Origin: Octopus vulgaris
Lineage: Eukaryota
Direction: 5' to 3'
NCBI GenBank assembly: GCA_951406725.2
Contig: OX597835.1
Coordinates: 49,848,001-49,912,000, forward strand
Length of the DNA: 64,000 bases
The translations under genes and the position numbers were made by a program. Shown here one piece after another: positions 3,375 through 47,100 of the stretch. The notes beneath the pieces are model-generated. The model made no database searches. It saw only the letters and a list, made by a program, of their open reading frames with translations, and was not told where the DNA came from. The first letter of the stretch is position 1, and each line of letters starts with the position of its first letter.

Positions 3375-3550
3375 CCGGAGTAAACACATAAATGTGAAAC
3401 AAGGTGGAAAAAAGAGTACTCAAATACCAGGGGTAGAGTAATACGCTTTATTTAAAGCAGCAGAAAATTCAACAAAAACTGTCCGATGAACGGCAAAAGG
3501 GAAACTCAGAGTAACAGGTTTTGTTGAATTTTCTGCTGCTTTAAATAAAG
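3375..3550 (+). mobile_element. Small fold-back element in (TA)n with degenerate hammerhead core in the loop
   Basis: 37-bp inverted arms 3446-3482 and 3514-3550 enclose CCGATGA..GAAAC TCAGA GTA; (TA)n on both sides; related decayed copy near 47860-48030. Confidence 0.65.
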
Positions 3551-6500
3551 TATATATATATATATATATATATATATATATATATATATATATATATACA
3601 CACATATATGTGTGTGTGTATGTATATGTATATATGTATATATATGTATATGTATATGTATATGTATGTATGTATGTATGTATGTATGTATGTATGTATG
3701 TATGTATGTATGTATGTATGTATGTATGTATGTGTGTATGTATATATACATACACAAAGAAAGAAAGAAAGAAAGAAAAAGAGAGATAGACGGCAGAGTA
3801 AATAATTTCAGAAAAATTTCAGTGCTATTTCCAGCATATTAAGTGTCCCGTTTAGAGCAACCCCCGCATCAACCTCCCCCATCACAATACACACACACAC
3901 ACGCGCGCACACTCAATGCCATCGATTAGTTGACGTCAGAACTTGACTGAGTACCGTACTTGACTGGTACTTTATTTTATCGAACCCAAGGGAATGAAAT
4001 GCAAGGCTGATCTAGACGAGATTTGAACTCAAAGCGAGGACAACTACAGCAAGGCATGTTGTCCGACGGTGGGCCGCATGTGCCAATCCAACGTCATTTC
4101 CTGCAACAATGCCATTACCATTAGATTTGTTAAATAATCTGGTTAATCTTCTAATCACTTTCAGTGAAGAGATCTTTAACTGAAGGTCGTAAGCATATTT
4201 GTCTCAAACTTTAATCCGCCATGCCGAGAGTTATTGCAAAGAACAATACACGATGGCATTGGCGACATCGTCAAAGCGAGGAACCCCGGGAAGACAGCAC
4301 CAGAAAATGTAAACGAAATCTTATTAGAGGGAGAAATCACATTTTCTTGGAGTTCTGAACCCAATAATGACTTCTGTAATTACTGGAAAACGTCGGAATG
4401 GTCCTTCTGTTAGCTGATATGAACTTTATGAAACAAAGCATGAGACCAACTCTATTCGACGTTTAATTATTTCACAATGAAACAATTTACGCTCGAGGAC
4501 AACGCTTGTTGAACAGAATAGGTAGGTTGTTGATTGTAATGTTATTCCCAGAGGTGAGAACATGACGTAAATAACAGCACACGAACGGCATATTTAAATG
4601 TAATATGGAACCACACATGTCTGTGACGATTATGACACCATGTTTGATAAGAGACAAGCTTCGGCCAGCGGGTAGCCATTTGTATCAGCTTGCAGTGAAT
4701 GAGGTCGACTGACCACACGCTGCTGCTATTGCTGCTGCTGCTGCTGCTATCCCTGACCAGAGAAGTAGCTACGAAAATAGTAATGTGGTGGTGGGGGGGG
4801 GGCGAGAACATTTGAAAGACAGTTTTAATTAAAAGTTTCGAGAAGATATTGATTCGTTTCAAAAACCACAGCTGCAGGACTCACCACTTTTAACAAGACG
4901 CATGTAACATGTAACACACATGTGTAATATACTGAAGTGTCAAACTGCGATTAAACTGAGATTATCTACGTGATTAGTAATCAAAAACTACTTCTAAGCG
5001 TGTTTAAAATTGTATTAGTTACAAACAAGGGGAGACAATTTCAATAACATTTGAATTCCGGGCACTTTTCCTTTGTAGTTCCTTGTTTTTAAAATTCAAA
5101 TATTTTGAAGAAAAGATTATCTCCCTTGTAATAAGTTGCATCACTCAAAGGAACCAAGTGTGTTTGAGAAGGACAATGCAGCTGAGAGTAAATATTGTGT
5201 TTGATGCTGACTGGCGAAAGCAATGGGCATGTTTCGGCTTCTCTTGGGTCTCATCGGTGAGCCATATCCAACACAGATTAAAAACCTTGGAAGTGGCCAA
5301 TAGATAGATAGACAGATAGACGGACAGACAGTCAGAGAGACAGACAGATAGATAGATAGACAGAAAATTGATTCACTGACTATGGATATTAGCAATACGG
5401 CAGAAGGAGAACACCAAAGGAGAACGTTCTCATGGCTAAAGTGGACATACGGAGGAATTTAATCAATATAATATAATGAGTTGAAAAGATTCGACGACTG
5501 AGAGTTTCCTTTGCAATTAGAAGGTAAAACCCCCCGCTAAGTATGTTTAGAATCTAAAAACAATTCAATGTGCTTCGGAATGATGATTGTAGATTTTGAA
5601 AAACCGAACATTGACCGAGTGAAGACTATCAACGATGTAGTGATTGTTATCAAACGTAACAAATTGCTACATTTTGCACCAAAAAGAAAAAAAACTGAGA
5701 AAATAAAATGTTTGCAAGAGAGAGTGTAGCTTCTGACCAGCGAGCCAGAAAGTGAGACAGCGGTACAGAGAGAGAGGGGGGGAGAGAGAGAGAGAGAGAG
5801 AGAGAGAGACAGACAGACAGACAGACAGACACACAGACACACAGACACACAGACAAACACACACACACACACACACACACAGAAATGACCCGTGTGCTTA
5901 AAACACTTGCTTGAAATAGCAGCCAGATCTCTCTCATATCACATCCGACTGTCTTAAAAAAATATATGACAATGTTTCAAGCGTATCATCATCATTATAA
6001 TCATCATCATCATCATCATCATCATCATCATCATCATCATCATCATCATCATCATCATCATTTTAATGATTGTCATCATCATAACCATTGCCATCACCAT
6101 CGTCGTCATCAGCAGCAGCAGCATTATCATCATCACCATCATCGTCATCAACGTCGTTGCCACCATCATTAAATCTGGGGTGCACTGTTTTGGGTAGTAA
6201 AAGACAGGATGGTCATGACTGGAACGCTTTAATGATACATCTGCCAGATCTATGGCTAAACAACGATAACATGACAACATGAATAAAGGTGCCTTTATAC
6301 AGTGCTAGAGATAACAGCCAAATACCTCCCAACTCACTTCTTGTATTCTTTAAAAAAGGAAACATTGGACAATATACTCTAAAACATGTCATAAAAGGCT
6401 GGGTGGACACGATTGGAACGTCTTTGATCGAGGATATTGTTTGTTAAACAAAATTAATAAAAAAGGAAGAACAGGTTTTAATATTGAAGCAGCGAGTTAG

Positions 6501-44100: not shown

Positions 44101-47100
44101 GATCAATTCACTTCTGAAGTCCATCAGATGCAAACGGCAGCTGGAATTGAAAGATCTAACCTTTTCATTCAGTCTGTGAGTTACATCAAGGTTAATCAGA
44201 GGAGAGCTTGCTGATGTCAACCACTCAACATTACGCAGTGTGTCCTGTTAAGGTCAAAATACAGAATAAACATTACACATTTAGCACTGACTTGAGGCCT
44301 TCATCCCTTTCCCACACTTACAACACAAGAAGGTAGGGTGGTACACAGACATTATTTCATACTCAAATTCCATAACATATTTTCAATATTGATCTATATT
44401 TGGTTTGTTAATTGTTGCTGTTGTTCAGCCCCTGCTCAGCCTTGACCGAGTAGACCTATGCCCAAATTTGTTCAAGCAGGGACCATTCCATTTGTTTATA
44501 TGTTTAGGCCTTTTCTTGACCACATTTCTTGACCACATTTCTTGACCACATTTTCAATGAAATATACCACTGTCCCTGTATTTCAGTTAACTCTGAAAAT
44601 TAGGTTAAGCGTCCTCTGTCACAGCTCCAGACTGGCCAAAGCTTTGGGAGTGGTTTTCATCAAATGTACACTTTCTTTTTCTTTCTTTTTCTTTCTTTTT
44701 CTTTTTACTTGTTTCAGTCATTTGACTGCGGCCATGCTGGAGCACCGCCTTTAGTCAAGCAAATCGACCCCGGGACTTATTCTTTGTAAGCCCAGTACTT
44801 ATTCTATCGGTCTCTTTTTGCCAAACCACTAAGTGACGGGGACGTAAACACACTAGCATCGGTTGTCAAGCAATGCTAGGGAGACAAACAAAGACACACA
44901 AACACACATACATATATATACATATATACGACGGGCTTCTTTCAGTTTCCATCTACCAAATCCACTCACAAGGCCTTTGTCGGCCCGGGGCTATAGCAGA
45001 AGACACTTGCCCAAGATGCCACGCAGTGGGACCATGTGGTTGGTTAGCAAGCTACTTACCACACAGCCACTCCTGCGCCTATATATATATAGGAAAAATA
45101 TTTTTCATATATTTCTACACGAGTGGAATAAAATAACTTTGTTTCCTATATATATATATATATATATATATATATATATATTGAATCATCCCATAAATAA
45201 TGCATTTTATTTGATACTTTTTTTATTTTTCAAAATTAAGATAAACAACGTTGTTTTTTAATCTAAAATATACTCTCCTTCATTTTCTACAACGTTCTTC
45301 CATCTATCTGCTACACTTGTAAGGCCCCTCTTCCAAAATTCACTAATCCATGATGAAAAATACTTTTCCAGTACTGTTCTGACCGCGTCTATAGAATTCA
45401 TATTTTTTTCCCATCCAAATAATTTTGAATAAATGCGGAATAAATGATAATCAGATGGAGCAATGTGGTGGGTGGGGAATTGTTTCCCATTCAAACTGCT
45501 CCAGCCTTTTGGAATGTCATCCTCGCTGTATGTGGAAGAGTATTATCATGATGGAAGAACACCTCTCATCTTTAAACGAAAGATTCTGACTCTTCCGATC
45601 GCACTCAGGTGTCGATGAATGATTGAATGACCAAATCCAAGCTTCTCTGCTAGTTCCTTAACAGGTGGGATTTTGTTCCACCAGGGTTTGCAGGATGTTC
45701 ACATCGAGCTCTGCAGATCTTCCAAGACGAGGCTCGTCTTCTAGGCTATAGTTTCCTGTTCGGAATTTCTGGAACCACTGTTAGCACTGGCTTACTTACG
45801 CCTATTGTCCGATCCCCAAATACTACATTAATATTCCTCACACTTTCCATTGCTTTGTTGCCTTTATTGAACTCATAAAGCAAAATATGCCGAATATGCT
45901 CCTTTGTCCTTCCATTATGGCTTTGAAAAAATAACTGTTAAAATCGAACTGCACTCTTAAAAACTTGCTCTCAGAATGAGTACAAGGTAAAATTGCTACC
46001 TGTTTTTCTAGCAAGTTGATACAGGTAGTTTATCCCCTGCCCCTCCGATTTTGGGTTCATGTAACTGAAAAAAACACATTATTTATGGGATGACCCAAAA
46101 TATATATATTGTTTAAATATTTCCCTTGAGCATTGCGAGACTAATAACCTGATGTAGAACTCAATATATGTGTGTTTCAGAATGAAGTGGTGGCTGGGTA
46201 GAAAGCAGTCATAAGAGAGAGGACAAAGGAATAAACACTTATCTTATACACTTCATTAGCTGACAACTGTTTCTGCAGCGGATTCATAGTTGAGTGCCTC
46301 AGTAACAGCTTCATTGCAGCTTCGAATATGAAGTGCAATTTATTTGGGAAAAATAAAATTGCATTTTATATTTGAGGCTCTGATGAAACTATAAAGTGAT
46401 ATTCAGCATGCAACTATGATTCTACTGCATCTTATAGCAGAAAAAGCTGTAAGCTAATGAAGTGCATAAGATAATTGATCATTCCTTTGTCATCCCATTT
46501 TCTTATATATATATATATATATATATTTACAAGGTGATATATATACATATATTCATTCAGATAAATAACACTGTTCAATATGATGTTGGAATCACTTAGC
46601 TTAATCGTACAGAGCACCCAGCCAGTATCTGAGAGGTACAGGTTTCAATTCCCTGTAGCCACCTACTGGTAACCCTTTGTCCAAGCCATACCAGCATGGA
46701 AAACAGACATGAAATGATGATGATGATGGTGATGAAGAGATCCTAAAACCAAGGGGCTGTGTAAAAAGCATTGGTGTGGATGCTGGTGCCACATAAAATG
46801 TACCCAGCACATTCTGTGGAGTGGTTAGCATTAGGAAAGGCATCCCACCATAGAAACCAAACCAAAACAGACTCTGGGACCAGGCGTGGACCCTGGCTTT
46901 GCCAGTCCCTGTCAAGCTGTCCAACCCATACCAGCATGGAAAAACGGACGTTAAATGTTGATAATGATGTGTCTGTGTCAGCATGGGAGTGTTTTGTTGT
47001 GTGCATGTGTTTGTGTCCCCTTCTTTTGAGATTATGGGAAAGTTGTAAACAAGTGTGACCATCCTACAAGCAATGTTGTCCATTTCCAGTCTTCTCTGTA

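Follow-up and report, generated by a model that had tools for sequence, protein, structure and literature searches.

Four fold-back loci at TA repeats in Octopus vulgaris, probably 5'-truncated Penelope-like insertions from at least three families

We analyzed a 64,000-nucleotide window of Octopus vulgaris DNA (contig OX597835.1, positions 49,848,001 to 49,912,000; coordinates below are those of the window), in which an initial annotation had placed four fold-backs inside or abutting (TA)n. All four (loci A to D) are present at the positions given, and they share an asymmetric layout (4/4): (TA)n, an unpaired tail of 71 to 110 bp, an arm, a mirror arm, and again (TA)n. The tails, which are an addition to that annotation, lie on the left side only. 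The window also holds a Penelope-like element (PLE) in a single orientation, here called E, and a diverged relative of A, here called A2.

Locus A follows (TA)19 (3337 to 3374) and starts with a 71-bp unpaired 3' tail (3375 to 3445, minus strand) that is homologous to the 3' end of A2. The left arm (3446 to 3482, minus strand) is a post-ribozyme segment that at its inner end overlaps stem I of the hammerhead, and the tail-less right arm (3514 to 3550, plus strand) adjoins (TA)n at 3551 to 3598. The arms are complementary at 36 of 37 positions and enclose a 31-bp loop, which is a single hammerhead-like motif (3478 to 3517, plus strand). This motif has one core change (CCGATGA), an unpaired stem II, a 4-bp stem III, and a predicted cut after 3513; it matches a relaxed descriptor only (one match, versus zero to one in shuffles), and there was no Rfam hammerhead match at A. 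In stems I and III it looks, by eye, similar to the hammerhead row of Hydra-2_aMil (Craig 2021 File S2). The left arm ends within 5 bases of the predicted cut, and the junction lies in stem I. A2 (47853 to 48030, minus strand) has the plain order of hammerhead-like motif, segment X, and tail, with no inversion and no TA flank. Read along the tail-first strand, A presents its loop hammerhead in sense orientation, and A2 has the natural order (alignment score, 36 plus versus 16 minus). This loop orientation is wrong for a simple one-step snap-back. Searching metagenome, viral, and prokaryote contigs for exact patterns of the A family gave no matches.

Loci B and C had been described as homologous copies with very different arm lengths, and both statements hold: the copies are 73% identical over 101 bp (E value, 7e-10), and the arms of B measure 29 bp, versus arms at 20806 to 21298 and 21307 to 21778 in C. 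B lies beside (TA)4 (18595 to 18603) and consists of a 98-bp tail homologous to that of C (18604 to 18701, minus strand) and a 29-bp head-to-head palindrome (18702 to 18759) with neither loop nor hammerhead. Its arms (18702 to 18730 and 18731 to 18759) match at 28 of 29 positions and adjoin a 214-bp TA tract (18763 to 18976). The apex of B falls about 15 nt before the predicted ribozyme cut site and that of C about 450 nt beyond it; B lacks a hammerhead because its apex precedes the ribozyme.

Locus C starts at (TA)32 (20632 to 20695) with a 110-bp tail (20696 to 20805, minus strand). The left arm (20806 to 21298, minus strand) is the 3' end of a 5'-truncated element and carries an intact type I hammerhead motif (core at 20925) as well as degenerate internal repeats of about 135 bp. 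An 8-bp apex spacer (21299 to 21306), which reads as a copy of 21287 to 21294, leads to the right arm (21307 to 21778, plus strand), which also holds a hammerhead (core at 21660, predicted cut after 21737). This tail-less end runs into (TA)n through four shared bases; the TA tracts flanking C measure 64 and 50 bp. The arms agree in 467 of 497 columns, with three indels and one substitution, at the TA junction. The lack of substitutions outside the junction base suggests that both arms derive from one template, although gene conversion or assembly polishing could also have made them identical.

Only C passed our structured hammerhead descriptor, with two matches, one per arm, versus none in each of six shuffles; those at A, D, and E either are decayed or do not pass it. 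The right arm of C scored 18.5 bits against Rfam Hammerhead_1, under the gathering score of 34 (E value, 0.033 in a 145-base search). Scanning the whole window with Rfam gave no match at gathering score and none to a hammerhead, and minimum-energy folding did not yield the hammerhead fold. We attributed the 121 matches of that scan to sequence composition and discarded them; most were to microRNA and snoRNA models and fell on microsatellites and hairpins.

We compared 605 bases of C with the contigs of four of 24 listed sequencing runs. The family is high-copy (3,690, 914, 1,003, and 694 contigs), and 22 contigs of one run stop at 20806, the tail-less boundary of C, against a TA run. Seventeen contigs in three runs (10, 4, and 3) extend past the apex at 21298; C is thus truncated and the apex variable. 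No difference is listed in the hammerhead core at the 2% level in the four runs, and a variant among the family contigs turns loop III into a perfect palindrome. No strand-changing joint is among those listed for these contigs, so that other copies gave no direct view of a fold-back; the contigs are short, and 191 loose ends fall outside the listing. The hammerhead region had a greater summed contig depth than the tail or the inner arm, but this measure cannot rank these parts.

Locus D has old, diverged inverted arms (46212 to 46503) next to (TA)n at 46504 to 46526. A 102-bp tail (46110 to 46211, minus strand), absent from the earlier annotation, moves the start of D about 100 bp upstream, to 46110, beside the TA run at 46100 to 46109, (TA)5. 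The arms, at about 46219 to 46345 and 46351 to 46494, match at 105 of 126 positions, with a likeness of about 70 to 83%. They hold decayed hammerhead-like motifs that failed the structured descriptor.

Element E (34283 to 35775, minus strand) is a 5'-truncated PLE with TA runs at both ends. The initial annotation had assigned a GIY-YIG endonuclease ORF (35242 to 35793) to an element ending at (TA)n, and we confirmed this: the domain scores above the Pfam cut-off, and the element ends at (TA)n at 34252 to 34282. The ATG of the ORF falls in a flanking host repeat; homology begins at about 35775, beside (TA)4. What is left (35242 to 35775, minus strand) comprises a CX4CxxC linker and the GIY-YIG endonuclease, both from the C terminus of a Neptune-like PLE, and no reverse transcriptase (RT) part. 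Two relatives, P0001 and P0003, have RVT_1 (E value, 8e-6, below the Pfam cut-off) followed by GIY-YIG; E matches their last ~175 residues at 54% and retains only the final 177 residues. Read from the alignment, E has the CX2-5CxxC linker and the CCHH motif. Among long relatives, the linker lies near the C terminus in 24 of 24 and a DKG/DKS motif is present in 22 of 24. Neptune-clade PLEs likewise have a C-terminal GIY-YIG with a CX2-5CxxC linker, a likeness judged by motifs and, for Craig Fig. S2, by eye. We ruled out the Hydra clade (no CCHH, CxCX5C linker, DKT) by the CX4CxxC linker and CCHH-type residues, and Naiad/Chlamys (N-terminal endonuclease) because the domain runs up to the stop codon and aligns with the C termini of full-length relatives. 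The 3' UTR of E contains three 103-bp repeats (34700 to 35002) and, by eye, a possible decayed hammerhead near 34330 to 34375 that fails the descriptor.

Families A, B/C, and D and element E have no DNA in common with one another. Searches with a profile built from 24 full-length relatives and, by tblastn, with 156 proteins matched E only, with no PLE coding sequence in or beside A to D; we therefore assign these loci to PLEs by anatomy rather than by a linked ORF. Protein-guided locus searches gave one distant locus from 34 candidates, which ends 64 bases past the match; elsewhere, they gave none of 106 and none of 26.

To put the TA association in context, we collected 28 local self-inverted matches in the window and removed 12 that were weaker than an E value of 1e-7 and one TA run. 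Of the 15 remaining matches, four have an end no more than 10 bp from a TA tract of at least 20 bp (binomial P of about 3e-4, post hoc), and the other 11 lie away from TA. Counting TA tracts of at least 8 bp instead gave P of about 5e-3 (post hoc). An insertion bias toward the microsatellite is also indicated by TA at all four loci in the window and at the C boundary in 22 contigs; A2 lacks it.

We conclude that the four fold-backs are probably 5'-truncated insertions from at least three separate PLE families, likely to have arisen when the endonuclease nicked a TA repeat and the cDNA then primed itself. From the literature, a GIY-YIG endonuclease with a CX2-5CxxC linker would nick (TA)n; such a protein is found here at E, which belongs to another family than A to D. 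Reverse transcription would begin at the tail end of the RNA, as suggested by Frangieh 2024, and would stop early at a variable point, as seen in B versus C and in the copies that run beyond the C apex. The cDNA end may then fold back and copy itself, consistent with the symmetric apices of B and C. The mirrored strand would end at a fixed boundary, observed for C, 36 to 52 nt past the predicted cut and would join (TA)n, at C and D through three to four shared TA-like bases. The TA tracts would be targets rather than products. Variable self-primed fold-back had been proposed in the initial annotation; the variation in depth holds and the symmetric B and C apices fit self-priming, but simple snap-back does not account for the loop orientation of A. 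On this reading, locus A would be a longer palindrome whose center was later deleted between two stem I copies, or whose loop was flipped. PLE ends at (TA)n with variable fold-back depth and self-priming are already published (PMC3846280).

There is a modest chance that the inverted ends arose from two cDNAs, primed from both nicked TA strands at the tail start and an internal start, with head-to-head annealing of their 3' ends at a short palindrome or at stem I of the hammerhead. For A, this would mean run-off of one cDNA where the ribozyme cuts. The stem I junction of A hints at such a joint, in one copy only, as do its sense loop on the tail-first strand, the natural order of A2, and the left arm ending by the predicted cut. 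The loopless apex of B and the TA-like bases shared with the target at the tail-less ends of C and D fit as well, and purified Poseidon protein, a predicted dimer, cuts and extends both strands and uses two start sites (PMC11167929). A single copy, however, carries the case at A, and a later deletion between two stem I copies would yield the identical sequence. The C arms, which end at the same base around a templated 8-bp spacer and lack substitutions, fit snap-back better. Somewhat smaller is the chance of a dimeric PLE protein priming one cDNA per (TA)n strand, from the tail start and from an internal UA-rich start, with the ribozyme cut of the A family setting the stop and stem I joining the cDNAs. 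Against a role for the cut, dead ribozyme mutants of the one reconstituted PLE still inserted in vitro, and the Poseidon study found no RNA-seq reads terminating at the cut (PMC11167929). In the literature searched, which took in few subscription papers, we found no twin target-primed model for inverted PLE ends. If twin priming were true, A would be the first genomic footprint of a function for the PLE hammerhead. The origin of inverted ends and the role of the hammerhead have been named open questions (Craig 2021; Frangieh 2024). A family that is abundant, has a fixed tail boundary and variable apices, and shows one stem I junction would allow a genome-wide junction census to separate snap-back from twin priming.

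Other readings of the fold-backs fare worse than self-priming of truncated PLE cDNA. We consider it very unlikely that a single microsatellite-targeted, ribozyme-driven system, mobilized by the E endonuclease, made all the loci and also seeded or lengthened (TA)n, a strong form of the initial annotation. Four of the 15 strong fold-backs end at long TA tracts, E has TA at both ends, and long tracts flank B and C, but E shares no DNA with A to D, the three fold-back families are mutually unrelated, and A2 has no TA flank. Seeding or expansion of (TA)n found no support in the window: 15 of 22 long tracts touch no identifiable PLE-type end, and Helitron-like elements also end at TA tracts, including the longest (273 bp). 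Non-autonomous DNA transposons of the MITE or foldback type targeting TA would account for inverted arms, TA flanks, and the lack of coding sequence in A to D. This origin is highly improbable and largely refuted, as the repeats are not terminal and a 71- to 110-bp tail lies outside them on one side only; moreover, the family runs past the C apex, A2 has no inversion, and hammerhead motifs lie within the arms. An artefactual origin of the near-perfect palindromes, by assembly or by long-read fold-back, is highly improbable as well. The C arms differ by indels rather than substitutions and the window holds other near-perfect inverted pairs (28566 to 28738; 204 bp at 100% near 30.7 to 31.1 kb), but the flanks are not mirrored, the right boundary of C is a family boundary in independent contigs, and D repeats the layout with arms of about 70 to 83% likeness. 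We also rejected identity with non-LTR retrozymes, noncoding type I hammerhead repeats linked to PLEs (PMC7229834; bioRxiv 10.64898/2026.07.22.740005): these are head-to-tail tandems of about 300 bp, A to D are head-to-head with a tail, and no head-to-tail hammerhead tandem occurs at A to D.

The individual parts are established PLE anatomy: the inverted pseudo-LTR, one-sided tail, hammerhead, (TA)n bias, and self-priming have all been published (Arkhipova 2013; Cervera 2014; Craig 2021; Frangieh 2024). Canonical endonuclease-positive PLEs show the same truncation, inverted head-to-head copy, palindromic junction, and one-sided tail, with a hammerhead near the 3' end and AT-rich or microsatellite targets (PMC8557442 Fig. 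2 legend; PMC3846280). The inverted 5'-truncated copy, one-sided tail, pLTR hammerheads, and (TA)n bias are described in PMC8557442, head-to-head palindromes were interpreted as self-priming (PMC3846280), and opposite-strand hammerhead pairs occur 100 to 700 bp apart (PMC4209133). The CX2-5CxxC linker has been hypothesized to confer microsatellite bias (Craig 2021 PMC8557442). Target-site duplications are unreadable inside (TA)n at A to D, as noted for PLEs (Craig 2021 PMC8557442). Unlike canonical PLEs, A to D are too short to keep an ORF, and their tails are 71 to 110 bp, versus the 30 to 40 bp stated in papers. Poseidon_Ac in vitro has AT-rich cleavage, a type I hammerhead, and a tail set by two internal RT start sites, but it belongs to another clade and has a short tail, and the study offers no account of inverted copies (PMC11167929).

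PLEs, in 190 families, account for 6.83% of the Octopus vulgaris genome. Loci A to D add uncatalogued family ends to this known class, and such short remnants can pass for MITEs or microRNA hairpins. Motif searches of the sequence parts of two papers' supplements gave no match to A to D; five motifs from the window likewise had no match among the sequences of the Craig 2021 supplement, in which a line break may mask a hit. One close likeness is to the Hydra clade (Penelope-13_HM, Hydra-2_Amil, Hydra-1_Obim), in which almost all families prefer (TA)n and hammerheads are canonical. Penelope-13_HM itself prefers (TA)n and has an inverted copy, with hammerheads on each strand (Craig 2021 Files S1 and S2); the Hydra-1_oBim hammerhead is unlike those of A and C. 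By our own arithmetic from the Craig tables, the hammerhead-to-end distance in 24 Hydra-clade consensuses is 26 to 43 nt in 10, 81 to 149 nt in 11, and other in 3, a count that omits the minus-strand Penelope-13_HM hammerhead, whose coordinate convention is unclear. The distances in the window, 36 to 52 and 97 to 152 nt, fit these two classes.

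We confirmed that the four fold-backs previously noted at (TA)n are real in the window sequence, and compared their layouts. Fold-back A (3375-3550) has 37-bp arms and a 31-bp loop, the 29-bp arms of B (18604-18759) meet without a loop, C (20696-21778) has arms of ~490 bp and an 8-bp spacer, and D (46110-46503) has old arms that agree at 105 of 126 aligned bases. Each right arm ends within 10 bp of a TA tract, and an unpaired segment, the tail, lies between each left arm and another TA run (71, 98, 110, and 102 bp in A to D). The initial annotation had recognized the fold-backs but overlooked that the tail is one-sided and that D extends 100 bp further left. 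A search for local self-inverted matches gave 28, of which 15 were kept (E < 1e-7, TA runs excluded). TA tracts of at least 20 bp lie at the ends of four of them, with ~2% expected per match (P ~3e-4, post hoc), and the remaining 11 lie away from TA. Separately, a near-perfect AT-rich palindrome at 28566-28738 (175 bp, 96%) has neither a TA flank nor a relative in the window, and a common interspersed repeat forms an inverted pair at 30628-31242 (44 bp apart; 204 bp at 100% identity), representing a recent fold-back, conversion, or an assembly artefact.

The fold-backs are probably of Penelope-like element (PLE) type, which is largely described already. Craig 2021 (PMC8557442) describes PLEs with 5' truncation, an adjacent inverted copy, and a tail of 30-40 bp often at one end, as well as pseudo-LTRs carrying hammerheads and a (TA)n bias, which it records for Hydra-1_Obim and three Octopus Naiads; the layout of Penelope-13_HM is that of C. 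Cervera and de la Pena 2014 (PMC4209133) report minimal hammerheads with a palindromic helix III, and hammerhead pairs on opposite strands 100-700 bp apart. The part seen of Bonar 2026 (PMC13282606) assigns 6.83% of the O. vulgaris genome to PLEs, in 190 families, and does not mention hammerheads. Arithmetic on Craig's tables (PMC8557442) puts the Hydra-clade hammerhead-to-end distance at 26-43 nt in 10 of 24 consensuses, 81-149 nt in 11, and other values in 3; the loci in the window give 36-52 and 97-152 nt, counted from the predicted cut, the reference points differing by the 4-7 nt of stem I. Given these two similar classes, the long tails of A-D are probably already known.

Hammerhead motifs are unevenly preserved. 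A descriptor search predicted that both arms of C hold an intact type I motif (two matches in the window and none in six of six shuffles); the long stem II of C makes its Rfam Hammerhead_1 match weak, at 18.5 bits against a gathering score of 34. The loop of A is a single hammerhead-like motif with a changed core base and unpaired stem II, found with a relaxed descriptor only and matched by no Rfam hammerhead model. Decayed hammerhead-like motifs were seen by eye in D and in E, a 5'-truncated PLE, but the descriptor failed in both; B has no hammerhead motif. In A2, a relative of A (47853-48030, minus strand), the hammerhead 5' half is itself duplicated in a short tandem (47962-48006). Both copies keep the CCGA-type core of A, so this core may characterize the family and not reflect decay. 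Presumed 3' UTR tandem repeats lie upstream of the hammerhead in E (34700-35002, 3 x 103 bp) and C (21040-21300, ~135 bp, degenerate).

The proposed homology of B and C held on sequence alignment (73% over the tail and arm start), and no DNA was detectably common to A, B/C, D, and E when compared with one another. Six PLE-like inserts (A, A2, B, C, D, and E, within 3375-48030) all point the same way, with the tail or 3' end leftmost (minus strand); this polarity has a chance of ~1 in 32 and may reflect a host transcription unit.

E (34283-35775, minus strand) overlaps the open reading frame at 35242-35793, which does encode a GIY-YIG domain (E 9e-7, above the cut-off). Its product aligns with the final 175 residues of RT-plus-endonuclease proteins (740-770 residues) at up to 54% identity and includes a CX4CxxC linker, placing E, by sequence, as Neptune-like, neither Naiad nor Hydra. 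The 5' truncation of E at ~35775 adjoins (TA)4 and its 3' end lies against (TA)15; E lacks an inverted copy. Elsewhere in the window, neither tblastn with 156 proteins nor a profile built from 24 long relatives detected any PLE coding remnant.

To look beyond the window, we aligned contigs of 4 of 24 listed public runs (three organism labels, three studies) to 605 bases of C. The numbers of matching contigs (3690, 914, 1003, and 694) indicate an abundant family. In run X1, 22 contigs leave the element at 20806 and pass into a TA run, at the boundary where the right arm of C also ends; the tail boundary of C is fixed. Further element sequence past 21298 in 10, 4, and 3 contigs of three runs identifies the C apex, where the arms fold back, as a truncation point. 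No difference in the hammerhead core was listed at the 2% level in the four runs, a loop III variant in contigs gives a perfect palindrome, and each run includes the 4-bp form of the right arm. The listing, which showed 32 pieces of 65-149 bases and omitted 191 loose ends, named no strand-changing joint; this counts against our reading, as fold-back in other copies was not directly observed.

Relative to the predicted ribozyme cut, the apex varies, lying ~15 nt before it in B and ~450 nt beyond it in C. The arms of C were copied from one template, as they carry no substitution outside the junction base. The left arm alone has a 24-bp tandem duplication (21232-21283), which, with the 8-bp templated spacer at the apex (21299-21306), resembles slippage near a junction. 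A general PLE route would begin with nicking of the (TA)n target and priming at the tail end; the cDNA would then snap back, priming on itself, and the mirrored strand would join the target, with help at C and D from 3-4 TA-like bases common to both. We consider it likely that A-D are PLEs made in this way. Arkhipova 2013 (PMC3846280) interprets head-to-head palindromes as self-priming. Frangieh 2024 (PMC11167929) connects the tail with a pair of internal start sites, reports cutting and extension of both strands, and concludes that ribozyme cleavage is not required in vitro.

Whether snap-back alone is enough within this route is evenly balanced, and A is the odd case. A2, diverged and in plain order with neither inversion nor TA flank, gives the natural order as hammerhead, segment X, tail. 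On the strand of a tail-started cDNA that snapped back at stem I, the hammerhead would be antisense, but the loop hammerhead of A is sense (alignment score 36 versus 16), and the left arm ends at most 5 bases from the predicted cut. This arrangement requires two cDNAs annealed through stem I (twin priming), a longer palindrome whose center was deleted later, or a flipped loop, all judged on one copy. Twin priming seems unlikely to us; we found no such model for PLEs in the literature searched, and inverted junctions may be discussed further by Evgen'ev and Arkhipova 2005 and Arkhipova 2006.

The suggestion that fold-backs seed or expand (TA)n found no support. PLE-type ends occur at 7 of the 22 TA tracts of at least 20 bp in the window. 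Three tracts, including the longest (273 bp), adjoin the ends of non-coding elements that we take to be Helitron-like (5' TC, subterminal hairpin, 3' CTAG). These elements lie at 18979-19366, 19640-20350, and 29454-29842; two face each other over the 273-bp tract, and 18979-19388 and 29454-29864 are 94% identical. Another hairpin end lies within 48041-48237.

The window also holds a broken non-LTR retrotransposon (59470-61083, minus strand) with an endonuclease fragment and an RVT_1 domain (E 7e-23). An open reading frame fragment at 42345-42812, with a weak PHD/C1 finger match, is probably a retrotransposon remnant, and a tandem-repeat minisatellite at 33297-33576 has 21 copies of a 13-bp unit.
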